DNA from: Naegleria gruberi
Taxonomy: Eukaryota
Assembly (NCBI GenBank): GCA_000004985.1
Contig: GG738852.1
Direction: 5' to 3' (one strand)
DNA: 64,000 bases
In this document: piece after piece, positions 6,809 to 52,565 of the stretch
Numbering within the stretch: position 1 is the stretch's first letter
Layout: each line of letters begins with the position of its first letter
Notes under the pieces: model-generated
Told to the model about the DNA's origin: nothing
Seen by the model: the letters and a program-made list of their open reading frames with translations, nothing else
The model's database searches: none
Made by a program: the position numbers and the translations under genes

Positions 6809-9800
6809 ATGAATAAACGACTAGAGGAATTTTCTCCTAAGCCAGTTGTTCGGAGCAGTAGAACAGCTGCTGCATCATCAAGTAATAGTAATATGGATGC
6901 TGATGATGATCAATTAATGGTAATTGATGAAAAAATCCTTCAAGAATTTAAACAATTTCACTCATCAGAAATGATTGAATATAATTCTAAAAAGTTTATT
7001 GAAAAGTATTGGAGCAATACACAAGAGAAGAACGAAAAGACCATGTATTTGGTAACCTTTTTACGTGATGTGATATATAAAGTACCAGAACATGAAGAAA
7101 AGGAATTACAAGTTTCGGAGAGGACACAAACAAACAGACAAAGATTAGAAGATTTGTTGGGAGGCTTGACCGGAGGAAATACTCCTACCATTAACAATTT
7201 TATGCAGCTATTGTCTGGATTGAGAGATCAACCAATGCCCATCACTACTTATTCTGAAGTTATAGTAAATCCTGATGAAACGGTAGAGATTGGATCCGAT
7301 TGGTTGTCTTGCTTGTTATGTTATGGACAAATGCAAAAGGAAGCACAGTACAAGAGAATATTAACAACAAATAGAGGAGTTTGTGGTAAAACTTGGACAG
7401 TTGGACAAATTGCATTCAAATGTAAAACTTGTCAGATGGATCCAACTTGTGCTATTTGTGAAGAATGTTTCAAGAAGGGAAATCATGAAGGACATGATTA
7501 TTCCATGACTAGAAATTCTAATGGTATGTGTGATTGTGGTGATGTTGAAGCTTGGAGTGTATCAGGTTTTTGTTGTGATCATACTGGAAGAAGTGATCCT
7601 CTGGCCCACTTGACCCCTGATTATTTGGAACTTTTGAAAGCCATCACCAAAGGATTATTCTCTAAAGAGGGTGTCATTAATAATTACATTCGAGAAATTA
7701 CAACCAAGTACAAATCGTTAAAAGATGAAGGTTCCAGAAAAAAGTCATTCCAACTGCAAACTCTCTACCAAAATTTCAAACAAGTTCTAGAAACTGTTTT
7801 GGAAAATTTTGATTCATCACCTTGTCTCAAAAAGTTAGCATATTTGGAACTTAAAGAGTTGAAAAAGGGATCGACGTCTCTAGATGAAATATTACTGAGC
7901 ATACCATCAATGACTCAACCAATCAAGTATTTGTATTCTGATATCTTTATGTCTTTCATAACAGACATTGATTTTAAAACATTTTTCTCGGAGAGATTTA
8001 TTGCTCATTACTCCATAATTATTGAAGACTACAAGGAATATTTGAAAACAAAAAATAAGGAAAATCGTGAAGATGATGAGAGAAAGTCAGTCCACATCTC
8101 TTCTCTTTCTGTTCAGCTATTAACTACTCCAACCGTAGCTGCCCACTTGATAGAAAATTGCAACTTGGTCTCAGTTCTTTTAGATACGTTAATAGAAACT
8201 GTAGAGGATGAATCTATAATGGATGAGACTAGAAATAATAGATTAGTTTATAATCCTGAAGCCAATTCTAAAAAAGTAGAAGCTCTGTATCATATCATTT
8301 TTGATATTAACTATTGTGTTATGCATCAAAAATTCAGTGATCATGTTTTACTCAATGAAGATTGCTACCACAAATTTTTAACATTCCTCTCCTATCTTCA
8401 AGCAACAATTGATATTAATAGAAAAGATAGCGATGACTCTCAATGGTATACGGCCTTCAATTTGGAGATGGGTACTTTACCTAAAATCATTAGATCCATT
8501 ACCAGTTTTATCGAAGGATATGCTAATGATTCAAAATATAAGACTATCCTCCGTCAATTAATTATGAATCTCAGCAAGATCATTTTGGATGATAACTTTG
8601 AAATTGAAACAGATGGTACTGTAAAAGTTAATCCATTCAATATTCCAATTACATACAACTTACCATTGCACAGGTTTGCAACAACCATATTCAAACAATT
8701 AATGTCAATATTCCCAACTGTTTCTCTCAAGTCATCTATTTCTGAAATTTTAGAACAAACATCACCAAACTCGCCACAAGTAACAAATCAATTCTTAATA
8801 CAGTTACTTGAACAGCCACTCAAAATTTTTGTTACTTCAGCCCAAATTACTGCTAGACTTTGGCAAAGAAATCATGAACATAGTAAGTAATTTAAATTTG
8901 AAAATCTTAAGATCAATTTTTCCAGTTCTTGAGCAATCTTATAATTATAATTCTGAAGCTTTTGGTGATTACACCTATTGTAATGACATATTCTTGATTC
9001 AAATTATTAGTGGACTCATGGATAATCATGATTTAATATTTAGAACACTTATCAAAAAGTTCAACAACTCCTTGGATGAATTGAAATTGTTTACCAAGGA
9101 AAAGCTAAAAGAAGATGAAGATAAAAGATCCATTTTGGAAGAAGAGTTTGCAAGACTCTTAGTTTGCATAAGTACCAACAGAGTATTTATGGATTCAATG
9201 AGCAACTTTGATATTTGTAGAAAATATGTTCTTCATTACTTGTTTACTGAGGAAAAATGCAAATTTTCAGATATTGTTTCGGCAGTTCCAAAATCCTTCA
9301 GAGCAGCTGGTATTGATCTCAAAGTTATTGTAAACGAAGTTGCTAATTTCCACAAGCCAAAAGGATCTCACGATCAGGGTTATTTTACTGTAAAATCAAA
9401 TTATTGGGATGAATTGGATCCATACTTTATTGGTATGAGCTCTCAATTATTTTATCAAGCTACAGAACAATACAAGACACAAACAGGGCTAAAACAACCT
9501 CCACCAATTTGTCTGGAAAAGCCAATATTTGCTGCCAATCAACAACTTGAAAGTGGGCTTACAGGATTAATGCTCAGTAATTCACTTTACAAGATAATTT
9601 TCTTTATCATGTATAGAACGATAATTTGGAGAAAGGATTCTAGCCAAGAACAGTTACCAGCTTTTGTTCTTCATTTACTCTTACTCTCACTGAATCATGT
9701 TCCTACTGGTACAGCAGAAGTTTCCCAAATAACTGTTCCTTCTAAACAATCCTTGCTCTCACCAATTAATAGTTATTTGGACATTCCATTTAAAGATGGT

Positions 9801-15340: not shown

Positions 15341-16516
15341 TTATTCTTGATCATCTTCTGCTTGATAATTTTCATCATTAGCATCTTCCTCTTCGTAATA
15401 TTCATCATCTTCATCAATATCTTCCTCATAATCCTCATCATCATCTTCCTCATCTTCTTCCTCATCATCGTCATCATCCATGTAAAGTGAAATTGGTCTT
15501 CTAATTCCAATGAGAACTGTTTTCATTTGAGTGACAAAGGCAACATTATTGGCCTCATCTCCCTCAATGCAGAATGCAAGTGTGAAATCATCCGTCTTGT
15601 CTGAGATAAATTGATTCGTTTCAAAGGTATTTCTTTGTAAAATCAAATTGATAGAGTGTTTCTTTTCCTGCTCTGAAACATATTCCTGTAATTTGCTGAC
15701 ATAGAGACAAATTTCAATTATCTTTTCTTTGAGTTCCTTTTTAATGTTTGCATGATTGGCTTCAATACTGTCCATGAAACTTAAATATGATCTCGATGTC
15801 AAGTACCAAATCATTTTTGGAGTTGAAGTTGTAACATCATGTTTCGAATAGGAAGCACTCATACCAAGATTTGGAATATTTTGCTTTGGAATAATTGAAA
15901 AACTCAATGTAAATGTTGAGCTTTGTCCCATTCCCAAATCTTTTGTAACTTGTTGACCTTTAAATGTTGAGAGAAATCTGTTTTGAAACCAATTCACATG
16001 TTTGACTTGTTCCAAAGGATAATACCTCGATGCCAATTCAAATGCCTTGCTCACTCTCATCATTTGAATGATTTCTCTCAATGTAAGAAATGGAAATATG
16101 TGATTATTAATAATTTTGAATGGAATTTGCTTTTTACAAATAGAATACTTTAACTTTTCAAGATCGGACCTGAAAGATTCATGATTTTGTGTTTTCTTTC
16201 TTTCCTTGATGAGTGATGATCTCATCTGACGAGCAAATTCTTCAATTTTTCCAATATTTAATTTTCTGTCTTCTGATGATGAGGTTTCGTCTGTTGGATT
16301 TTCGTTTTCTTGTTGAGGAGGATTGGCTGCCTCTTCATTATCGTCATCATTGGTTGATTCGTCATCTCGGGATTTAGTTTTCAACATGTCGTTGAATAGT
16401 TTCTCCTTCTCATGATATTCCTTTAGTCTTTGTTCAGTTTCTCCTAACAAATCACTATCGAATAAATTTTCAAAATTACCCAGAAGAGAAAGGTTCTTAA
16501 ATTGTTGTGGAAGCAT
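15341..16516 (-). CDS. Hypothetical protein with an F-box-like motif and a poly-acidic (D/E) C-terminal tail
   Basis: IPFKIINNHIFPFLTLREIIQMMRVSKAFELASRY; C-terminus DDDDDEEEDEEDDDEDYEEDIDEDDEYYEEE. Confidence 0.4.
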   Translation of the reverse strand: MLPQQFKNLSLLGNFENLFDSDLLGETEQRLKEYHEKEKLFNDMLKTKSRDDESTNDDDNEEAANPPQQENENPTDETSSSEDRKLNIGKIEEFARQMRSSLIKERKKTQNHESFRSDLEKLKYSICKKQIPFKIINNHIFPFLTLREIIQMMRVSKAFELASRYYPLEQVKHVNWFQNRFLSTFKGQQVTKDLGMGQSSTFTLSFSIIPKQNIPNLGMSASYSKHDVTTSTPKMIWYLTSRSYLSFMDSIEANHANIKKELKEKIIEICLYVSKLQEYVSEQEKKHSINLILQRNTFETNQFISDKTDDFTLAFCIEGDEANNVAFVTQMKTVLIGIRRPISLYMDDDDDEEEDEEDDDEDYEEDIDEDDEYYEEEDANDENYQAEDDQE

Positions 16517-16677: not shown

Positions 16678-18483
16678 TTAGTAATCATTCCATAATCCAA
16701 TATCCAATTTTTTCTCATTAAGTTCAAATCTTGCACTGTTGTGTCCACAAAGACATTTGCAAATATCATTGAAACAGAATGATTGAATTCCATCAAACAT
16801 ATCTCTTGGAATGATTGGGGAATGATTGGCAATTCCTAGTAAATTTGGAATATCAAAATGCTTTGGAATATTGATATTTAGTGGAGAATCTCTTTCAAGG
16901 TATAAACTAATAATTTGAAGAGCTGTTTCTTTTGTAATTGGTAATTTTCCTGTTTTGAATAGCTCAATATCATACCAAGCTAACATTTGCTCTGGATGGT
17001 AACCTCTTCTTGCAATATCCAAAATTTCTGCATACGCATCTCCTTCTTTTAGTTTGATTGCAACCTCCATTGAAATTTCTTCGCTATTCTTTGAGTCATA
17101 TCTCACAGAATACAAGACAGGAAGGAATATTGTAACAAATTGTTCAATGGTACAATAGAATAACATGCAAGTACCAAAAGGAAAGAAATAGTCAACCAAT
17201 TGGACTATAATATCAATTTGACTAGTAATAATATAAATAAGACAAAAGATGAGTTGGACAACCACTACAGCTAGAGTTTCTTTCTTAATATACCAAATAT
17301 CCTTATCAGTCCTAATAGAAAGAATGACAAATATTGTCTCAATAATTATATAAATAACGGCCTCACATGTAACCAAAATAGAGGTATTCTTCTCCACAGA
17401 ACATCCTCTATCAAATAAAAAGGTTCCTCCATCTACAAAGAAAAGTTTTGTTTCCACAAGCTCATCCGAAACTCCAACTGAGACCCAAAGAGCTACATGT
17501 ATAAAAACAATCAAAATAAGTGCCGGTATTAAGAATTTTGAGCTCAAAAGAAATGAGTAAATTTTGATAAACCTCTTCTTGCGTTCAATGTCCCTGTTTG
17601 ATATTGCAGATGCATTTGTTGTTTTGTTTTCCGAATAAATACTTTGATCATGCATTTCATGTTCATTGCCTAATTCTTTCTGCAATGTAAACAGTTCAAT
17701 TTTTTTCTTACAGAGCTTAAATTTAAAGAAGAGTCTAAAGCATTTGTAAATGGTAGGAAGAAAAATACTTGCAGGAAATAAAAAGTAAATGCTCGAGTAC
17801 AAAATGCATGGAAATGCAGATCTCCCAACTATGAATCTAATACTAAGAATTGATTCAAATATCACATTTCCAGTTAGTGAAAATAATAGAGACAATGGAT
17901 GCCTCTCCTTAATGTGCCTACTCTTCCATTTCCACACTAGGCCAATAAAAGTCAAGAATGTTATCAGTAAATAGATCAAGTAAAATATTGCAGATAGAAT
18001 TGGTGTGAAAATAGTGTCAGGACACAGCCCATAAATCTCTGTAGGCCTCTCCTCTCTCGAATAGCCTCCATTAAACAGAAAAGGATCGCAACTCGTCGCT
18101 ACAGATGCATTATAATTTGGAGTTGTTGAGAGTATGGTATGAAATATTTGGTCCATGTATTCCTTAACTACATGGTCATGCAAGCCTAGATGTTGTGCTA
18201 TTGATTGCACAAACGTATTTTCATTTACAGACGATGATGAAGATGTCAATTCCAAATCATGTTCCGAACAAGTCACAACATTTATCAAAGTACTCATCAA
18301 GGCCACCATTATCAATGTATTTAGAAAAAGCCAGTTAGTTTGTTTCATCTTTTTAAAGCCAAAGTTTATGTTATATTGATGTTGCTGTTGATGTTGTTCT
18401 TCTTTTCGTTGGTGAGTTGATGAAATTGCTTTTGATGTCATTGTGCGTTCATTCTTTTTTTTATGGGATTCAAAAATGTTCAT
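16678..18483 (-). CDS. Seven-transmembrane receptor-like protein with a C-terminal RGS (regulator of G-protein signalling) domain
   Basis: Seven hydrophobic helices between about residues 150-460. The C-terminal ~130 aa (ISMEVAIKLKEG...MLAWYDIELFKTGK...LQIISLYLERDSPLNINIP...MFDGIQSFCFNDI) matches the RGS-box pattern (xFWxxVExFK ... IYxxYL...INI...). Confidence 0.55.
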   Translation of the reverse strand: MNIFESHKKKNERTMTSKAISSTHQRKEEQHQQQHQYNINFGFKKMKQTNWLFLNTLIMVALMSTLINVVTCSEHDLELTSSSSSVNENTFVQSIAQHLGLHDHVVKEYMDQIFHTILSTTPNYNASVATSCDPFLFNGGYSREERPTEIYGLCPDTIFTPILSAIFYLIYLLITFLTFIGLVWKWKSRHIKERHPLSLLFSLTGNVIFESILSIRFIVGRSAFPCILYSSIYFLFPASIFLPTIYKCFRLFFKFKLCKKKIELFTLQKELGNEHEMHDQSIYSENKTTNASAISNRDIERKKRFIKIYSFLLSSKFLIPALILIVFIHVALWVSVGVSDELVETKLFFVDGGTFLFDRGCSVEKNTSILVTCEAVIYIIIETIFVILSIRTDKDIWYIKKETLAVVVVQLIFCLIYIITSQIDIIVQLVDYFFPFGTCMLFYCTIEQFVTIFLPVLYSVRYDSKNSEEISMEVAIKLKEGDAYAEILDIARRGYHPEQMLAWYDIELFKTGKLPITKETALQIISLYLERDSPLNINIPKHFDIPNLLGIANHSPIIPRDMFDGIQSFCFNDICKCLCGHNSARFELNEKKLDIGLWNDY

Positions 18484-18935
18484 AACAATTTACTAATAAA
18501 TAAACTGAAGCACCGTATTGTGGATTTCTTAAATAGTCCTTCAGTGATGAAAATGGTAAAATGAACGATTTTCTTGTTACTTTGTGTTGGCATTTATAAC
18601 ACACTAGTTGAGAAAGTAAACAAGTGATTAAAAATCATTTCAACAATATTGCCAGTTCTCAGCCCGTAAAGAGTTACCTTAATGGAACAGTTTACAAGCA
18701 ACTCAGTAATTGTTTGCGTAAACAACTTTATTCTCTGATTTTCACGTGAGGATGGCTTACATGAACCTGTGTTTTATCTTCGTGTTGCTTCAACAGGCTC
18801 ACAATTTTTGTGTGCCCTTCTGTTAGTGCTATTTCCATTGGTGACTGAATTGTTAATGCTGACCAGAGCTGGCAGACAACTTACCAGCTTTTGGTTGTTT
18901 AAAAAAAGTGTTTCAGAGCCAATAATTTTAAATAG

Positions 18936-19694
18936 TACTTACTTCATCCTTATTTTGTTATAATGGCTTGTAAGGTGGAGAATACATACATTTTTAAAAA
19001 CCCACTACATAATAGAGCTTTAACATGCTTTGTGTTCCTCAACTTACATCCTTAAATAATCGTAAACATCATGTTGATGTGATTATCACATACGAAACTT
19101 ACAGTCTGCATGTTGTTAAACATCATCACACATGCCAGAAACTTACAAACTTTAGGACGTAAAAACAACATTTAACGGAAAATGGACTTACTTGCTTAAT
19201 AATATCACACAACATTATTTACATCAACATCTTAAATACATACTCCTCTTTTAACATCAACTCCTACAACATTCACTAATAATTGAGGAGTCTTCATCAA
19301 TGCATCCATGTTCAATGTTAAAAAAAGCTTACCTCCTATTACATCTTTCAAATGTAAATATTACAAGAAATACTTACATACTAATAATCAAGGTCATTAA
19401 AATTGATTCTTGAAAGCATGTAAAACATACAATCTATGTACATTTAGAAAATCAAATAAGCTGATCACTTACATCCTACATGGAGTGAGATCACTAATTC
19501 ATACTGCATACTTACATACTGGATGGCAAGTGAGTATTCAAATAACGAACATACGTACAGACTTGAATCATTCAAATAATAAGACTATATACATCGAAAG
19601 GTACTCACATACTATCGGATTATTTAAGTGGAGAAAATGGGAGTAACTTACACTCTGACAAATTGTAAAACAAGTTCAAAAGAAGCTCACTTAC
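18936..19694 (-). other. Array of closely spaced consensus 5' splice-site motifs (GTAAGT on minus strand) at roughly 45-nt periodicity, mostly in the configuration YAG-NNT-GTAAGT. Putative 3-nt micro-exon chain or recursive-splice/decoy tract downstream of the ankyrin exons.
   Basis: Plus-strand ACTTAC occurrences at about 18937, 19042, 19097, 19141, 19187, 19328, 19373, 19467, 19510, 19551, 19601, 19646, 19689. The reverse complement reads e.g. cag|AGT|gtaagt, atag|TAT|gtgagt, ccag|TAT|gtaagt, gtag|GAT|gtaagt, ttag|TAT|gtaagt, aaag|TTT|gtaagt, gcag|ACT|gtaagt, taag|GAT|gtaagt. Confidence 0.5.
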
Positions 19695-20491
19695 TCCTTT
19701 GTTGACATCAATCCTTTTTGATTTTAACAATATTTCTACAATGGCTAAATTTTCACTCTTACATGCAACATGAAGGGGACTCTTTTGATCTGTTAGAATG
19801 TCTTCAATCCATGCTACATACATACTAAACAAAAGGAAGAGACAATGGAACAATACGAATTGGAAATGAAACTTACGTAGTTCTATTAGATTGAAAGTCA
19901 ATTTTCCTTGTCAAAAAATTGAAATTGCTTACATTCTTATTACAATAATATTACAGAATAACAAGGATTGAATCTTACATTTTCCTATTTGGAATACTTC
20001 ATGTAATCTTGATTCTGAACTTACATACTAACATTATTATTTCTGATATATTGTTCAAATGCCTAAGACAACTTACTCCTCTATTTACATCAACTTCATC
20101 CCTTTCCACCAATAGTTTTACTATATTGACATGCCCGAACGTACATGCTGTATGTAAGGGAGACTTTTGAGAGATTAATTTCTGGTCTTTCCTCAAACTA
20201 CACTTACATTCTAATCACGCCAAATTCAATTCCTCAGATTATTGATAACTACGTACAGCCTTTTTAATAGAATCCAGTAAATTTTGATATCCACAAACTT
20301 ACTCCTTTATTTACATCAATTCCTTTTATTCCCAACAGAAATTGTACATAATCTGTATCACCTCTCTCACAAGCCTCAATCAATAATGTTTTCCCTTCAA
20401 CTTCATCATTGATAAAGCTTTCAAAATTCCGAATCTGACAAAATTGATGAAAGTTTCCGCTTCTAAGAATATTGAATGCCTTTTGAGCCAT
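19695..20491 (-). CDS. Ankyrin-repeat protein. Three recognisable coding exons (A 20303..20491; C 20077..20163; D 19695..19781), each ending ...DVN(K/R)G|GTAAGT. Exons C and D are exactly 87 nt and start after YAAAAG|.
   Basis: MAQKAF...GKTLLIEACERGDTDYVQFLLGIKGIDVNKG; SPLHTACTFGHVNIVKLLVERDEVDVNRG; SPLHVACKSENLAIVEILLKSKRIDVNKG. The spacers between them can be parsed as 40-100-nt introns separated by 3- or 6-nt in-frame segments (AAT; TAT, GAAAAT, AACTAC). Confidence 0.6.
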
Positions 20492-20582
20492 TTTTTAAGA
20501 GATGATTCATCTCCTCTATTGAGGCTCATCATTATATTTTCAAATGTAATGTAATTCAGTAGTGACAGATGGAAATTACATT

Positions 20583-21185
20583 CTATTCAATTTCGCTCTT
20601 CAATTTTTCATAGATTGTCAAGGCTACTGAATCAGAGTCAATCTTATCCTTTCCCTTGCAGAGTGATTTGGCCATTTCCTTATCAACCTCCACGAGAAGA
20701 AGTTTATGTCTCGATTTACCTCCTCTATCTAAAGTTACTCTTGATTTTGAAACTCCCAAAACACCTGATACGTAATCACATAATTCCTTGTTGGCTTCTC
20801 CTTCTTTTGGTGGTGCAGCAATGTGTACTCCAATTTCTTCATCATTAATATTAGCTATTTGACTTGATGAGCTGTTAGGCTTAGCCAATATTGTCAATCG
20901 GATTGAATAGGGTAAATTTGCAGAGGCAATACTAATTGATTTTGGAATGGCAGTGCTGCTGCTACTTGATGAATTGCTACTACTGGCACTGCTGCTACTT
21001 GTTTCCGTCTTTTTCTTAGGAGCCATGATGGTAGTGAATGACGATGAATTAAATCTTTGATATGAACAGTGAGTGTGATATTCTGAGAGTGAACTAATCG
21101 GTGGTGAATAGATTAATGATGATGAGCCAATAATAATATTGTTATGTTTCTGATGAAGATGTCTTATCAAGCCTCTCTTCAACAT
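20583..21185 (-). CDS. DUF167 / YggU-family protein with an S-rich N-terminal extension
   Basis: [47 protein letters not shown] matches the conserved core of UPF0235 (DUF167). Confidence 0.55.
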
Positions 21186-21676
21186 GAATTATTTTTTCCA
21201 ATTTCTATCAATTAATAAACAATCACGATGAACAATAATTTCATCTTCATCATTTAAAATTCAGTCCAATATATGAGAGTATTAAACCATTTGATTCAGA
21301 AATTAGAATGAGAATAATATTCATCTTTTGATCCGACTAATCGCAATAGAAGACATTAGATTGTAGCACATTTGCAGCGCTGCAATCTTTCGCATCCAAC
21401 GGCTAACAAAAAAACAAGGGAAAATCAAACTCTATCTTCATCAAGTAAATCGGAAATACATCAAAGCCTCCATTAAGAATATTATCATCACCAACAACAA
21501 TTAATTGGATGAATAATAATTAAATAGAATAGTATTAATGAATATTCCTTCCTGGTAATAATATAATTATACAATGCCACCAAATATACCAATAGTTACA
21601 GTCACAACATCGACTACTTTAATTCCCAAACACAGATCATCAGCTGCTGTTCATAATACAAGTGGAGAAGGCTCGG

Positions 21677-23214
21677 ATGAATCACCAATTCCTCATCTCG
21701 ATCACAAGATATCTTCACCATTCCGTACGGATGACGTCGAACAGACAACAACAATTGAATAATAATAACAATGGTCAACAATCATCCTCTCCTAACATGA
21801 TGAATTCGAATAATTCTATATTCTTTGTAATTTGCTTTTGTTATTCATTCTTTTGTTCTGGATTGTCTATTAGCATGATTGGACCTCTATTGCCATCCTT
21901 TGTTGCTCAAATTAATTTATCAAAGTATAGAGAAGGTGACATGACAAAAGTCTCATTAGAGGATTTAGGATTGGTATTTCCGAGCAGAGGTTTAGGAACA
22001 ATGTTGGGAAGCTTGTTAGGAGGATTCTTATTGAATTATTCAATCAAACATTGCTCGAGACAACAACATTTAATTCCACTCTTATTTAGTACTACTGGAG
22101 CTATTTTCATGTTATGTGCAAAAGTTTCATTACTTTTGGCTTCACAAGTTCAAGTTTTTGCAATTATTTACTTTGTAGTTGGTTTTTGTAAGTGATTTAT
22201 TTTACAATTATTGAAATAATCCCAACAATTACAGCACATGGATTAATTAATGTCAGTTCTAGTAGTTATATTTTGGCCAAATTCCCTAAAGAGAAGGTTA
22301 CTTTTTATTTTCAATTATTGAATGCATTGTTTGGATTGGGAGCTGTATTTGGACCATTCTTGACAGCCATAACAAAAAAGTATTATTCTAAATCTATTCA
22401 AACCAATGTAGTTGCAGTAGCTATTCTTTCAGATAGTGCCACTACAAAGGCAATTATTATTACATTAATGCTATTATCTATTTCTATTTTCCTTTATATT
22501 TCCGAGATTAAAAAGACCAAGCCAATCAATTCATCATCACCACAAAAAGAGTCCAATAGTGTCACTAATTGGAGTTCTAGAAATATCAAGATTATTGTAT
22601 TTATTTGTTTGGGAATTGTTTGCGTGACAGGTGTTGAACATGGAGTTGGTGGTACTTTGTATTCTTTTATTCATACAAAGAATTTAACAACAGAATCAGA
22701 GGCCAGTATGATAAATTCATCCTTCTGGCTTTCATTTACATTGGGAAGAATTATTAGCATTTTCCTTTCCTACCACATGAGATCATCATCAATTTTGGTT
22801 ATGGACCTTGTTGGTTCATTATTGAGCTCAGTCCTCTTTTTACTTTTCAATGATAATGTTTCAGCAATATGGGCAGCTACTGTGCTTCTTGGTCTTTCAC
22901 TTTCTTCTCAATATCCAACATTGCTTTCATTCCCTTCCTCATACTTAGACATCAAAGTTTCGAGCATTATCACATCATTATTTATTGTGTGTGGAGGTGT
23001 TGGATCAATGGTATTGCCTTACATTATGATTTCACTTTTCAAGTTGAAGGGACCTGAGAGCATGTTTTATGTCTTGTTCTTTACCCTCATCGTGGTTTCA
23101 TTTATTTATTCATATCTGATTCTTGGTTTCAAAAAGAAGATTCTTGACCCATATTTAGGAGGTATTATTAGCGATACAGTCTATGAAGATGATTCATTAA
23201 AGAGAAGAAAATAA
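21677..23214 (+). CDS. Major facilitator superfamily transporter (MFSD4-like); 2 exons (..22187, 22235..23214; 47-nt intron)
   Basis: Twelve hydrophobic segments across ORFs 21662..22195 and 22192..23214. These are joined in frame by GTAAGTGATTT...ATTACAG. GPLLPSF-type MFS motif. Confidence 0.7.
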
Positions 23215-47560: not shown

Positions 47561-49428
47561 TTATTCTTTGGATTGATCGGCTAGATCAGGAAGTTTGTGT
47601 GTTTCTACTTGATTGGAGAGTGGCGAAATTATTTCAAATGAAAAATCAACAGGGAATGAATGTGGATTGAAACAGGTACAACCTTCGACTTTTGTATTGA
47701 ATGGTTGGCATCTATCGGCTAGAATGAGTGAATGTGGAGATGGGAATAGACTCAATGAGTGATCTTGTTCCCAGAATACAGGTTGTAAATGCATGGCGAA
47801 GGGACTCAAATGAGATTGTGCAAGAACTGTTTCACACATCTATTTTTTTCAATATTAATAAAAAGAAAGAATTGTAAACTTACTGATTGATAAATTTGAG
47901 TTTCCTCCTTGTGTTCTATCACAGTGTGTCTTCTCATTTGTTGTTGTAAATCTTGTCTGAATACAACAAGCTCTTGAGTGTAGAACCGTATTCTGCATGG
48001 ATTTGTGGCAAAGAAGCTGTTTGGAATTCTTGATTTAAAGGTTCTGCTGATACTATCTAAAATTGGAGATCTTGGAAGTACGCCATTTGGAGAGAATGTT
48101 GGATCATTTGGACCTGGTACAAATACAAACGTTGGAGCATTTTCATTTTCTTTGGAATTGTAAATGAAATTAGGGAATCGTTCTTCAATCATCTTGGCAA
48201 GCTTTTCAAAATTCTTTTGATATAAAACACGATCAGAGGTTGTTGAACTAGAGGAGGAAGAGGAATAGAATTGGAATGGTCTAGATATGAAATTACCAAT
48301 AAATAAAAACATTGCTGGCATCAATTCGTATGAGTCCTCAGAAGTTCTATTGTGTTGATTCCACTTGATATATTCAAATAAGAGAGCTAGCTTTTCAAAT
48401 ACTAAAGGCTTATCAAGGCAAACATCTGAAACAACCACAATGAAGGCATTCTTGTTGATATCTTCCTTATTTTTGAGCTCTTTTAACTTTTCTGGTGAAG
48501 ATGAACCAAACATGTCCAACATGCTGCTTCTTCCCACAGATAAGAATCTTTCACTATCATCTCTATCTTCACAAGTTGGTAAAACAATAGCAGATGCTTT
48601 GAATACCTTTGTCACACTATCATAAACACCTGAAGCAATAACAAAAGATCCTTCCAAAATCGTTCCTCTATTATTAGTTGTCTATTTCAGCGTTCAATGA
48701 TTCAAATAAAATTGATGAGAAACTTACTGACTCAGAAATATCAACCTGTGTGACACCATTCAAATCTTCAATTTGATAAATGTCTGCAGACTTTCTTGTA
48801 ATTAATCCCATAATATATTTTGATCCTCTACTTCCTAAAAGTGAATCAATACTAGTTAAAGAGATTGCATTAGGGTCTGTTGGATTGAATTGTTTTCCTC
48901 TCATTACTTTTTGATAAATCATTTTATATCTGTCACGGAATACTTCAACCTTTTGTTGAACCTCTGAGAAGAAGGTAGTATCTCTTTGTTCAGGTTCAAA
49001 AACCTTTCTTGACATGTTATAGGAATAGAATGGTTTATCCTCAGCATTAATTATTTGAATGGCATCTCTGTGTCCAAGAACTGCTGTATTATCATCCACT
49101 AAATCATCTGATGTATCCATTCTCTTGGATTGGAACTCTTTTAATTTCTCTTCTATTAATTCGCCCGATAAATTTTTATCTATTCATCACACAATTGTAG
49201 CATCACATATTATTATTCAATAATCGGGATCATTCCACACAATCACTCACCTTTAACATTCTTATCCTGCAAAAATTTAAAAAATTCTGGTAAAAATTCA
49301 TTGATTTCATCCTTGCTCATTAATTTATTTACACAATAATCAGGAAGTGCCGAATTTGACAAGGTAAATTGGTACTTTTTAGCTGCCGTCACGCAGAGCT
49401 TTGATGCGATGGCTTTATTTGCACTCAT
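47561..49428 (-). CDS. DNA polymerase alpha/epsilon subunit-B family, most like Pol epsilon subunit 2 (Dpb2/POLE2); 4 exons: 49251..49428, 48729..49179, 47884..48681, 47561..47839
   Basis: C-terminal block ...APTFVFVPGPNDP...ATNPCRIRFYTQELVVFRQDL... and last exon ...VFWEQDHSLSLFPSPHSLILADRC...CTCFNPHSF match the phosphoesterase-like domain of B-subunits. All three donors are consensus (GTGAGT, GTAAGT, GTAAGT). Two of them produce the in-frame stops seen in the track. Confidence 0.65.
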
Positions 49429-49922
49429 TTTTTTTTAAATTAATTAATTTGAATCACTTTTGGCGGGAAGAATTTTTGGAGGGAAATTCAGATCGAAAGA
49501 AAATATGAGAAACAAGTTGATTTCCTTCACAAACAACATTAAGATTTTACAATTCAAATAATTTTTATTACAAAAATTCTTTTAAAGTTAAACTCAAAAC
49601 CACTGTTTATCCAAAAATTTAAATGGCAACTCTCCTTTCCTTCTTCATGTGAATCAACAACAGAATATATTGACTTGAGAAAATCCAAGAGATTATAATG
49701 AATATGCACTCCTCACCATCAACAACCACCAACAGCTACACTTCACATGAACAGTAAGAGTCTAGGCCACATTTTCGTTGTGGGTTTTCCGCAAAATTAT
49801 GCGCTCCTCATCCTAGAGGGCAAACACTTCTACTTTTGAAACAAAACTAACACATTGTTATCAATCACAAGCTCCTTTGTGCTCACAAATCACCATCACC
49901 ATCATTATAATATCGAAAAAAA

Positions 49923-52139
49923 ATGTTTCTTCGTCGTATGATTAATGCCATCTCACAATCATCAGAGTCTGGCAAATCTGATAATTCGGCCTATGCTCTC
50001 AATATTGACCATATGGAAATACCTATAGAGGAGTGGAGTCATAAAGTGGTCACATGTTTTTTGTATAAGGAACAATTTTTCGAATTAATTCCCAAAGTTA
50101 CGAAACTGAAATATGAAGGTGTTGATTTTCTGACAAAAAACAAGGAACAATTGACTGCCGAGTTGAAAGTACATGAAGACGAAATTACTGAGTTGATGGC
50201 TAGAATCGAAAGTGTAAAAGTGAAACAAAAGTATTATTCGAAGGCTAATAGATTGACACTTTCAGAGACAGATACAGCAGATATTAATTCTCAACCAGCA
50301 GTTGGAGACCCATCATCGCCAAACAATACTTCAAACGGAATTGCCATCAAAAACAAACCAATCGATTCAACAAGAAATATGTCAGGCTCGCCGAGTGCAC
50401 AAACTTTATCTGCATCACCAATGAATGGAAGTAGAGTTCCTCCACCTGGCCTCACTGAATTGGATAGACAGAGGAGAGGCACTGGGTTGGAGAGGGGCAA
50501 ACTTCCAAGCTCTCCAACAGGAGCAACCTCTCCTTCGAGCTCATCAATTTCACCACCAGCATCATCATCAGGAGAAGCACATTTAAATATTAGTAATATT
50601 CAACTTTTGAAAATTGTGGAATCATTTAAGAGACAACTCAAGGAAAATGATCTTCTCGCAGAAAGATCATACCGACTCAATAAGTATAAGAATACATTTA
50701 CTGGAAGCGATGCAACCACATTATTGCATAAATTGATGAGAGATGTGGCAAAATCTGCAACGAGATTCGATGCCATTGATTTGGGAAATGCAATGATAAG
50801 AGATGGATTCATAAAACATGTTGCCGAAGATGAAGACTTTAAAGATGAGCCAGGTCAATTGTACTTTATTTCCGACGATCCTAGAGCAAGAGACAGTTTG
50901 AACTTGAATAATAAGAAGGGAAGTTCTGCATTCTTTGCCGAAGAGGACAGATCCATCACCAAAGATATAATGACACCTGCAGCTACTGATTTAATTTATA
51001 GAGGTGATTGTGCCTCCAAGATGATTGTACTGATTAAGAATACAGACACTTTGCTCGAGTCTTTAATTTTCCAAGCAGGAATGCTCAATGATAAGGAGAA
51101 GAAGACATTGGAAGCCGTTACTAAAAAGCTCAAAAACTTGAACTATCCTGTCCCAGAGGTTCAAATTAGTTTGGTAGCTCAAGATTTGAGTTTGTCAGAG
51201 AGATACTTGTACAGTTATTTGAATCCAAACAGAATTCCAAGAGCTAAGAAGACTCTTTTGCAAGAAAAATCATGTGGAAAACAATTTATGGATATTGGAT
51301 TGGCCTTGACATGTACAGAAGGATTGGCTGGAGAATTTTACACTTTCGCATTAATTGTAGGAACATTTATTGTGGAATTTTCGGATAGATGTCATTTGGC
51401 ATTGGTAAGAGAAAAGGATTCGAGCTTTGTCAACTTTTTCCATATCACAACTATCAATGATAAGGAAAATATCGAATTGTGCTTAAAAACAGTTAGTAAG
51501 TGCTGTGTAAAGTGGAATGAAAAACCAGTTGCAAAGAATATCAACTCTAAAACTTTTGTAACTGAACTTTTCAGATGGATTGACATTCCTGAAAGTGTGA
51601 TTGAAACTGTTGCCTCAGATATGGACTTTATATCAAACTATCCAATCAACTCAAAATCACTCTTCTTACAAAAGGGACAACTGGAAGAAATTTACAAAGT
51701 ATCCGAGACTGTAGAAATTACTTCATCACTTCAAACACTTCTCAGTCAAATTACCAATCAAACCATTACATTCTACAAACATTCTGATTTGGCTGAATTC
51801 TACTTGATTGCATCCCACCTTTTGAATCCTGTTCAAAAACTTCTCATTTCCTCCTTTGCCAAGACATTTATGAGACAATTCAATGAGGGTATTAATTTAC
51901 CAAACTCTGAACCAATGTCCTACAAGGCAGCAAAGAAAATAACCAAAGAGAGATTATGTAAAATAGATGATGTTTTTACATGCCCATTTAAAGGTCATGG
52001 AATTTGCACAAAGAATGTAAAATATCCAAAAGCTGCAAATAGTGAAAACGAAACTCCAGTCCAATCTGAAAGCTCTCCTTCCGATTCTCTGACCTACCAA
52101 TACTTCCCTTGTAACATTTCATTACCTACCAGACAATAG
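49923..52139 (+). CDS. Signalling protein with an N-terminal SAM-like domain and a central DEP domain
   Basis: WSHKVVTCFLYKEQFFELIPKVTKLKYEGVDFL (SAM-like); RSYRLNKYKNTFTGSDATTLLHKLMRD... (DEP-like); S/P-rich linker. Confidence 0.5.
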   Translation: MFLRRMINAISQSSESGKSDNSAYALNIDHMEIPIEEWSHKVVTCFLYKEQFFELIPKVTKLKYEGVDFLTKNKEQLTAELKVHEDEITELMARIESVKVKQKYYSKANRLTLSETDTADINSQPAVGDPSSPNNTSNGIAIKNKPIDSTRNMSGSPSAQTLSASPMNGSRVPPPGLTELDRQRRGTGLERGKLPSSPTGATSPSSSSISPPASSSGEAHLNISNIQLLKIVESFKRQLKENDLLAERSYRLNKYKNTFTGSDATTLLHKLMRDVAKSATRFDAIDLGNAMIRDGFIKHVAEDEDFKDEPGQLYFISDDPRARDSLNLNNKKGSSAFFAEEDRSITKDIMTPAATDLIYRGDCASKMIVLIKNTDTLLESLIFQAGMLNDKEKKTLEAVTKKLKNLNYPVPEVQISLVAQDLSLSERYLYSYLNPNRIPRAKKTLLQEKSCGKQFMDIGLALTCTEGLAGEFYTFALIVGTFIVEFSDRCHLALVREKDSSFVNFFHITTINDKENIELCLKTVSKCCVKWNEKPVAKNINSKTFVTELFRWIDIPESVIETVASDMDFISNYPINSKSLFLQKGQLEEIYKVSETVEITSSLQTLLSQITNQTITFYKHSDLAEFYLIASHLLNPVQKLLISSFAKTFMRQFNEGINLPNSEPMSYKAAKKITKERLCKIDDVFTCPFKGHGICTKNVKYPKAANSENETPVQSESSPSDSLTYQYFPCNISLPTRQ

Positions 52140-52565
52140 TCAACCCATTTTGCCACCTTAATTTCCAATTTTGATTAAAAATAATTCTCTGTTCAATTGG
52201 AATGTTGCTATTATTCACACAAAATACAATACAATATTGAGCGAATTCAATTATCCAGCTATTGAGAATATTCCAGTATCATCAGCCAAGTATCAACGAC
52301 CTATAGAACTACTTAATACCCAGCTGTTTTTCTGATATTATCCAGATGTCGATACTTCCAAACAAGAACCAGAGAATATTCTAACATCCACACTCAGCAC
52401 TACACCCCAACAATGTTTGGCATTAATTCCTTGTTTATCTTGCGCTTGATGGTTTACAGATTGACTTGTTTGGTCTCGAGCGTTTAAAAGTGGAGCTTCT
52501 GAAAAAAACGAATCAAAAAAAAAATAACTTTAATTCTCTCCCTATTTAATAATAATAATAACAAA

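Follow-up and report, generated by a model that had tools for sequence, protein, structure and literature searches.

A candidate ankyrin-repeat gene of Naegleria gruberi with predicted chains of single-codon exons between minimal introns

INTRODUCTION

Why should consensus 5' splice sites (donors) recur about every 45 nt over some 1.5 kb of an otherwise intron-poor protist genome? The question is raised by a tract on the minus strand of Naegleria gruberi contig GG738852.1 (GenBank assembly GCA_000004985.1), of which we analyzed a stretch of 64,000 nt (the window, whose numbering is used for all positions). The genome of N. gruberi NEG-M has 41 Mb, a GC content of 33%, 1.7 exons per gene and a mean intron of 203 bp (PMC8296547), and the window has a G+C content of about 33% and mostly intronless open reading frames (ORFs). 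A first-pass annotation, made from the letters of the window, noticed ankyrin exons embedded in the tract and read the tract as a series of micro-exons of 3 or 6 nt with minimal introns between them, with recursive splicing, a decoy region or a decayed array of cassette exons as alternatives.

Here, we report a computational follow-up of that annotation. On balance, and with limited confidence, we favor the view that the tract belongs to a real, unannotated and lineage-restricted ankyrin gene, in which the inter-repeat loops would be built from 22 micro-exons, 26 minimal introns would be removed serially, and the array would have grown by local duplication.

RESULTS

Donor motifs in the tract

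We found 26 copies of GTAAGT on the minus strand of the window, 16 of them between 20302 and 18884 and 10 in the other 62 kb. Fifteen of the 16 copies lie within 18900-20500, and the sixteenth donor is at 18884. About 0.5 copies per 1.5 kb would be expected from base composition, and a motif count on the plus strand of the tract returned none. The first-pass annotation had reported about 25 consensus donors at a spacing of about 45 nt; in the tiling described below, the minus strand has 26 donors. Its lower limit of 18937 needs correction: donors do recur down to that point, but the tract extends about 90 nt further, to the last intron (18884-18845).

The combination AG-NNN-GTAAGT was found 11 times in the tract, as against 3 times in the rest of the window (once on the minus strand and twice on the plus strand). 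When the donor was loosened to GT[AG][ACT]G[TCA], 20 of the 25 minus-strand matches with an acceptor-donor spacing of 3 nt fell in the tract and 5 outside, and the window scan showed no comparable excess in the tract for spacings other than 3, spacing 0 included. As far as the window shows, the AG-NNN-GTAAGT pattern is strand-specific and local and is not compositional. This is the window-scale outcome of a density check that the first-pass annotation had suggested.

A dynamic-programming scan of both strands for GT-AG units of 36-60 nt separated by at most 15 nt recovered chains of 9, 8 and 6 units within the tract (a further chain of three introns, after exon A, comes from the tiling described below). 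Elsewhere in the window, no chain of at least three units was found on either strand. In 300 shuffled versions of the tract, the chain length was mostly 1-2 and reached 5 in 2 of the 300.

Tandem Repeats Finder reported no array inside the tract, and the intron cores aligned with one another at a mean Smith-Waterman score of 11.5, as against 11.2 for shuffled sequence. A tandem repeat or minisatellite was rejected on these grounds, in line with the earlier remark that the intervening units are dissimilar and form no satellite. Rfam covariance models gave no match at E <= 1 on either strand of 18000-21500, and inspection of the plus-strand ORFs of the tract revealed no plausible gene.

Tiling of the tract into exons and introns

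The minus strand from 20491 to 18728 (1,764 nt) can be divided completely into 27 exons and 26 GT-AG introns, the introns being 39-55 nt long. When joined, the exons form one stop-free ORF of 615 nt (204 amino acids), from an ATG at 20491 to a stop codon at 18730-18728; the claim that the short segments are in frame and free of stops holds through all 27 exons. Twenty-two exons are tiny, 18 of 3 nt, three of 6 nt (GAAAAT, AACTAC and GATGAA) and one of 15 nt. These micro-exons make up 87 of the 615 coding nt, and all of them have lengths divisible by three (3n) and lie in phase 0-0. The roughly ten 3-nt and two 6-nt segments counted at first are real, but the count was incomplete, GCT, AAT, TAT and the 15-nt exon having been missed. 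In order, the exon lengths are 189, 3, 3, 87, 3, 6, 3, 6, 3 and 87 nt, then eight of 3 nt, and then 48, 3, 3, 3, 3, 15, 6, 3 and 117 nt.

The whole inferred gene (18728..20491, minus strand, as are all its parts) would encode four and a half ankyrin repeats and is unannotated in N. gruberi. Exon A (20491-20303, 189 nt, MAQKAF...GIKGIDVNKG) carries the start codon and the first ankyrin repeat. It is followed by chain 1 (20164..20302), in which the tiling places introns I01 (20302-20260, 43 nt), I02 (20256-20211, 46 nt) and I03 (20207-20164, 44 nt) around the micro-exons GCT (20259-20257) and AAT (20210-20208). Exon C (20163-20077, 87 nt or 29 codons, SPLHTACTFGHVNIVKLLVERDEVDVNRG) is supported by the tiling and by Pfam. 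A sequence cag|CAT|GTACGT at 20150-20139 lies inside exon C out of codon register and could be chance or a relic.

Chain 2 (19782..20076) was tiled into six introns, I04 (20076-20028, 49 nt), I05 (20024-19985, 40 nt), I06 (19978-19936, 43 nt), I07 (19932-19883, 50 nt), I08 (19876-19825, 52 nt) and I09 (19821-19782, 40 nt). Between them are the micro-exons TAT (20027-20025), GAAAAT (19984-19979), AAT (19935-19933), AACTAC (19882-19877) and TAT (19824-19822). The tiling and Pfam again agree on exon D (19781-19695, 87 nt or 29 codons, SPLHVACKSENLAIVEILLKSKRIDVNKG). Exons A, C and D are the three ankyrin exons that had been recognized from their DVN(K/R)G|GTAAGT ends, and this identification was confirmed. 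Exons C and D were also said to have 87 nt and to open with YAAAAG|TCYCC; the length is right for both, but exon D opens with caaaag|AGTCCC.

Nine introns make up chain 3 (19292..19694) in the tiling: I10 (19694-19655, 40 nt), I11 (19651-19612, 40 nt), I12 (19608-19562, 47 nt), I13 (19558-19519, 40 nt), I14 (19515-19476, 40 nt), I15 (19472-19434, 39 nt), I16 (19430-19381, 50 nt), I17 (19377-19336, 42 nt) and I18 (19332-19292, 41 nt). They enclose, in order, AGT, TAT, TCT, TAT, GAT, ATT, TAT and GAG. Exon E (19291-19244, 48 nt, TPQLLVNVVGVDVKRG) is a shortened, degenerate ankyrin exon that ends in VDVKRG|GTATGT.

The tiling of chain 4 (18845..19243) gave eight introns, I19 (19243-19195, 49 nt), I20 (19191-19150, 42 nt), I21 (19146-19106, 41 nt), I22 (19102-19051, 52 nt), I23 (19047-19005, 43 nt), I24 (18989-18949, 41 nt), I25 (18942-18888, 55 nt) and I26 (18884-18845, 40 nt). 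Its micro-exons are CAA, TTT, ACT and GAT, the 15-nt micro-exon TGGGTTTTTAAAAAT (19004-18990), GATGAA (18948-18943) and CTG. The terminal exon (18844-18728, 117 nt) encodes SPMEIALTEGHTKIVSLLKQHEDKTQVHVSHPHVKIRE and the stop codon.

Predicted protein

The predicted product reads, in order, MAQKAF...IDVNKG-AN-SPLHTACTFGHVNIVKLLVERDEVDVNRG-YENNNYY-SPLHVACKSENLAIVEILLKSKRIDVNKG-SYSYDIYE-TPQLLVNVVGVDVKRG-QFTDWVFKNDEL-SPMEIALTEGHTKIVSLLKQHEDKTQVHVSHPHVKIRE; DVNRGYENNNYYSPLH is an example peptide of the predicted spliced form. Pfam matched the product to Ank_2 (1.7e-33), Ank_3 (2.6e-22) and Ank (8.4e-22), with two to three matched stretches each, and by this profile match the predicted product is a bona fide ankyrin-repeat protein. 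The Ank_2 score was 115.5 bits with the residues from the micro-exons and 101.8 bits without them. A similarity search within the tract found resemblance only among the 3' end of exon A and exons C, D and E, the similarity of exon E to exons C and D being significant.

The micro-exons would form the four inter-repeat loops AN, YENNNYY, SYSYDIYE and QFTDWVFKNDEL, and Tyr, Asn, Asp and Ser are frequent among the encoded residues. The first-pass annotation had proposed that the micro-exons supply the four residues missing from a 33-residue repeat. This detail was wrong, the loops gaining 2, 7, 8 and 12 residues, while the chain of micro-exons with minimal introns fits every sequence test that was run.

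Splice signals of the units

We compared the tract units with ordinary introns, defined as donor-acceptor pairs elsewhere in the window whose removal joins two long open frames (a sample of 13-15). The convincing ordinary introns read GTAAGT...YAG and are mostly 43-55 nt long, the whole sample covering 43-79 nt. Examples are 8883-8925 (43 nt) and 22188-22234 (47 nt) on the plus strand, and 47883-47840 (44 nt) and 48727-48682 (46 nt) on the minus strand. The spacing of about 45 nt in the tract would thus correspond to the normal minimal intron size of the species. In N. fowleri, the minimum intron length for read mapping was set to 30 bp from an assessment of predicted genes (PMC8296547).

All 26 units were delimited as GT...AG during parsing. 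Their donors are 16 GTAAGT, 4 GTATGT, 2 GTACGT, 2 GTAAGC, 1 GTAAGA and 1 GTGAGT, and the ordinary introns of the window draw on the same set. The 18 donors that follow 3-nt exons never vary at G1, T2 and G5. Information is carried solely by AG at positions -5/-4 relative to the next donor, by the donor itself (G1 T2 A3 A4 G5 T6) and by T at donor -1. The persistence of the signals despite the complete loss of interior similarity argues for selection on the signals, as neutrality would be expected to have eroded them along with the interiors.

The avoidance of G at position -3 is a general rule of 3' splice sites. This rule played no part in the parsing, and the 26 tract acceptors have A 11 times, C 4 times, T 11 times and G never at -3, against a G background of 16.5%. 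A branch-like YTRA is present in 19 of the 26 units, compared with 11 of the 15 ordinary introns and 51% of control segments. The lengths have a floor, with eight units of 39-40 nt and none shorter. Only 3 of the 26 introns have a length of 3n (binomial P = 0.011), a shortage that would be expected if retained introns must break the frame; by reading of the sequence, two of these three carry in-frame stops. As far as the sequence allows a judgment, these intron-like marks point to real introns.

By the same reading, I20 (19191-19150, minus strand, 42 nt) is the sole tract intron that both has a length of 3n and lacks in-frame stops, and its retention would add 14 residues with the frame kept. 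At the TAT micro-exons, the acceptor G and the following TATGT make a second donor-like GTATGT, 4 nt upstream of the main donor. Such overlaps lie at 20028/20024, 19825/19821, 19612/19608, 19519/19515 and 19381/19377 on the minus strand; the local sequence is AGTATGTAAGT, with AGTATGTGAGT at 19612/19608 and AGTATGTATGT at 19825/19821.

It could be proposed that the main mRNA consists of the five large exons alone, joined by removal of introns of 139, 295, 403 and 398 nt, and that the internal sites are alternative, regulatory or decoy sites. In the extreme version, the internal sites would be used combinatorially, with loop length and sequence varying between isoforms. The large exons are in phase 0-0 and the micro-exons are 3n and stop-free, so any subset of micro-exons keeps the frame. 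A product of the large exons alone would still be a good ankyrin protein by its Ank_2 score, introns above 100 nt are normal for a species with a mean intron of 203 bp (PMC8296547), and skipping would remove the steric problem of 3-nt exons. On the other hand, rarely used sites would not be expected to keep 16 GTAAGT donors out of 26, AG in all 26 acceptors, the rule at -3 and the length floor while the intron interiors became random. With intron definition and strong sites close by, the nearest acceptor would be expected to win, and the DVNKG-SPLH junctions of such an mRNA would be four residues short of an ankyrin hairpin. We consider this explanation unlikely, if the most serious of those that concern splicing.

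A separate and quite speculative idea, which we rate as improbable, is that one small gene could, by differential inclusion of its micro-exons, encode a great many different loops, and splicing would then serve to generate diversity in a single-celled eukaryote. It would fit micro-exons that are all in phase 0-0, 3n and stop-free, and that encode the hairpin-loop tips forming the binding face of ankyrin proteins.

Recursive (ratchet-point) splicing, put forward in the first-pass annotation, would use the internal sites only for the stepwise excision of four longer introns, of which the mRNA would retain nothing. Many consensus donors do lie inside what could be read as four introns. However, AG|GTAAGT ratchet junctions are absent from the tract (AGGTAAGT, 0 matches), and a spacing of 0 is not enriched. 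Each step would leave 3 nt on the upstream exon without regenerating a donor (for example, GGA|GCT), and the codon could not be removed later. To our knowledge, recursive splicing has been described for introns of many kilobases, not of 140-400 nt. Judged by these junctions, recursive splicing is excluded as a full explanation, and we regard it as highly improbable.

Proposed splicing and origin of the array

In the chain model that we favor, 26 canonical U2-type GT-AG introns of the minimal size of the species would interrupt the inter-repeat loops. Intron definition would pick out each of them separately, and they would be spliced out in series, probably from 5' to 3' during transcription. 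Removal in series is to be expected, since a 3' splice site could hardly be occupied at the same time as a 5' splice site that follows it after 3 nt. At each splicing step, a single codon, or in some cases two or five codons, would stay in the mRNA.

The array may have begun with a unit of one intron and one codon that was duplicated repeatedly in tandem, at loop positions tolerating extra residues. The intron interiors would then have drifted to randomness and shrunk to the spliceable minimum, and the splice signals would have been kept because a frameshift or a stop would result from any unit left unspliced. Such an array could persist without benefit, as a neutral ratchet.

Among all intron pairs, exact common words of at least 10 nt were found only between the neighbors I12/I13 and I21/I22 (Fisher P = 0.0057). 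I12 and I13 have an exact 10-mer in common, and I21 and I22 align along their whole length in addition to their common 10-mer. The sharing of words only between neighboring introns suggests that a unit of intron plus codon was duplicated in tandem and that the copies later diverged. TAT accounts for 6 of the 18 one-codon exons, and most of the others are one or two changes from TAT. I21 and I22 (19146-19051, minus strand) also contain short perfect palindromes or putative hairpin stems, namely GCATGT...ACATGC in the former and ATGTGATAATCACAT in the latter.

Decayed ankyrin exons were rejected as the source of the introns, since only exon E and the known exons scored above shuffled controls. 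The decayed cassette-exon array of the first-pass annotation thus applies to exon E alone, the rest of the tract being unlike ankyrin exons.

The array might instead be a hot spot of intron insertion, in which unrelated introns were copied in by reverse splicing or by an introner-like element. The units are indeed mutually unrelated, yet each is a complete, typical intron. Against insertion, the sole detectable similarities are between neighboring units, units of 40 nt are far too small for a transposon, and the fixed 3-nt spacing and the TAT-centered micro-exons agree with one unit having been copied repeatedly. No match of the units to the other introns of the 64-kb window was noticed. An origin by insertion seems very unlikely to us.

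Annotation of the locus and its relatives

Six of 10 long ORFs in the window match N. gruberi predicted proteins exactly, for example, EFC48098 at 15341-16516 (minus strand). The gene that adjoins the ankyrin gene encodes a DUF167 protein by Pfam (20583-21185, minus strand). It has orthologues in N. fowleri, N. lovaniensis and Willaertia magna and is missing from the N. gruberi protein set. Because this conserved neighbor is missing as well, the missing annotation of the ankyrin gene is no counterevidence. On the other side is an ORF of 601 codons (16678-18483, minus strand) that resembles a multi-pass membrane protein; neither a Pfam domain nor a homologue (E <= 1e-10) was found for it. Three consecutive minus-strand genes (16678-21185) are thus outside the protein set, and the region looks like a local annotation gap.

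The neighbors upstream of the DUF167 gene are syntenic in N. fowleri and N. lovaniensis, and synteny ends exactly at the 3' end of the DUF167 gene. In both species, the next gene downstream, after no more than about 100 nt, encodes an ABC transporter and lies on the opposite strand (L122 10566-13263 and L123 10564-13108). A comparison with related species, which the first-pass annotation had proposed, therefore found no orthologous ankyrin gene at the syntenic site.

An environmental Naegleria contig (L124, 864 nt; ENA ERZ4903137) comes from a closer relative than N. fowleri and N. lovaniensis, its DUF167 sequence being 77% identical. Directly after the DUF167 gene, its positions 517-610 match 92 nt of the second half of exon A (window 20452-20357) at 86% identity, and this stretch is more conserved than the adjacent DUF167 coding DNA (79%). 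The ankyrin gene therefore predates N. gruberi, although that relative has a decayed copy or has lost the gene.

We also scanned metagenomes for three chained units with the pattern GTAAGT-N(32-50)-AGNNNGTAAGT, taken twice. At least 120 loci matched; all those listed were (AAGT)n microsatellites or short tandem repeats, with no non-repetitive analogue among the matches listed. The JGI contigs that match the pattern (L024 and others) are long imperfect (AAGT)n arrays, and masking is needed in searches for AG-NNN-GTAAGT chains. A separate 4.6-kb contig (L121; ENA ERZ929261, run ERR1078381) is 98.1% identical to window 47845-52472; from this identity, a second N. gruberi-like strain exists in public reads.

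DISCUSSION

The tiling, the ORF and the splice-signal statistics fit a chain of micro-exons, and a number of observations weigh against such a gene. Exons of 3 nt between introns of about 40 nt are sterically awkward. Thirteen of the 26 tract introns are 1-4 nt below the shortest ordinary intron (43 nt, in a sample of only 13-15). AAG acceptors are found in 11 of 26 tract introns and in 1 of 15 ordinary introns, although exons C and D, which are surely exons, likewise use AAG acceptors. T occupies donor -1 in 15 of 18 cases (P = 1.6e-4 against the overall third-position usage), which is not a feature of ordinary donors and weakens the case; it may reflect the encoded Tyr, Asn and Asp (NAT codons in an AT-rich genome) or descent from a TAT unit. 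NNT codons are never stops and the large exons are all in phase 0-0, so the open frame and the lack of stops are individually weak evidence.

The predicted product raises doubts of the same kind. Its loops are longer than canonical and rich in Tyr and Asn, and exon E is a degenerate half-repeat. A search of 5.8 billion proteins found no match to the exons, no self-match and no paralogue or orthologue. An out-of-frame ATG-ATG at 20532-20527 lies 38-41 nt upstream of the proposed start and opens an ORF of 50 codons (20532-20380, minus strand) that overlaps the ankyrin start; unless transcription starts between the two, this ORF would function as an upstream ORF. Within 10 kb of the syntenic site in N. 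fowleri and N. lovaniensis, neither ankyrin sequence nor a cluster of donors was found. The exon A homologue in the environmental contig has a 1-nt deletion and a TAG stop and is without the start region, and no GTAAGT or donor chain was found in the 260 nt after it. The gene is therefore dispensable in these relatives and could be on its way out in N. gruberi. Finally, our literature searches found no chain of single-codon exons, and no Naegleria micro-exons, tandem introns or introners were described there.

Several of these points would also suit a dying or dead gene, or a non-coding transcript, with the array as a relic and the intact ORF as a leftover. The gene is unannotated, and a homologue search with the predicted protein returned five generic ankyrin matches of at most 35% identity. 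The frameshifted and stopped copy in the environmental contig, the absence at the syntenic site of the two other species, the degenerate exon E and the upstream ATG are all in keeping with decay. However, 52 splice sites and a frame of 204 codons over 27 pieces are intact while the interiors are saturated with change, and a relic of that age should have lost many signals. We hold decay to be unlikely, but it deserves attention.

Compared with known systems, the tract is an extreme variant of known things, namely minimal introns and micro-exons. The micro-exon genes (MEGs) of Schistosoma mansoni have symmetric micro-exons of 3-81 bp (bioRxiv 10.1101/2023.06.21.545858). Like the MEGs, the tract has a series of very short 3n exons between ordinary exons, of which any subset keeps the frame, and both are hard for gene predictors. 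The MEGs, however, have introns of up to 5 kb and encode secreted proteins with most of the coding sequence in micro-exons, whereas the tract has introns of 39-55 nt and mostly single-codon exons in the loops of an ankyrin protein, in an otherwise intron-poor protist. Membership in the MEGs was rejected on intron length and on the small micro-exon share of the coding sequence.

Isolated 3-nt exons are known in animals, such as the three-base exon of MAP4K5 (PMC8632122) and the 3-bp micro-exon of RPS24 (PMC12207440). Like the tract, they show that the spliceosome can include a 3-nt exon. The animal exons are single or in small groups between long introns and are often regulated by factors, whereas the tract has 18 in series, 40-50 nt apart. 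The ratchet points of Drosophila (PMC6110457) likewise have consensus donors right after acceptors in a region that is removed stepwise, but their junctions are zero-length AG|GT, nothing is left and the introns span many kilobases, while 3, 6 or 15 nt would remain at each step in the 1.5-kb region of N. gruberi.

For the origin, intron gain by tandem genomic duplication has been described in the potato RdRp gene (PMC4974935). Such duplication makes a new intron beside an old one with the frame undisturbed, and the tract pairs I21/I22 and I12/I13 still share sequence. The known cases gave one intron from a duplicated exon segment with AGGT, whereas the tract would require duplication of an intron and one codon about twenty times. 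The stwintrons of fungi (PMC8469720) are, like the tract, complex intervening sequences that need consecutive splicing, and some arose by intron duplication. Stwintrons are nested, with one intron inside a signal of another, while the tract units stand side by side, each complete.

If confirmed by transcripts, the tract would surpass in density every intron array on record in the literature searched, and it would be the first chain of 3-nt exons known from that literature. Real junctions would set new limits for the spliceosome, with 26 introns in 1.76 kb against a genome average of 0.7 introns per gene, and with eighteen one-codon exons, each leaving just 3 nt between a 3' and a 5' splice site. 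The gene would then offer a natural substrate for the order of intron removal and for how intron definition copes when neighboring complexes cannot coexist. It would also be a rare readable case of intron gain by local duplication, in which purifying selection is visible on the signals alone. For annotation, the locus is a warning: the ankyrin gene and a conserved neighbor are both outside the N. gruberi protein set, and similar genes could hide in other protist genomes.

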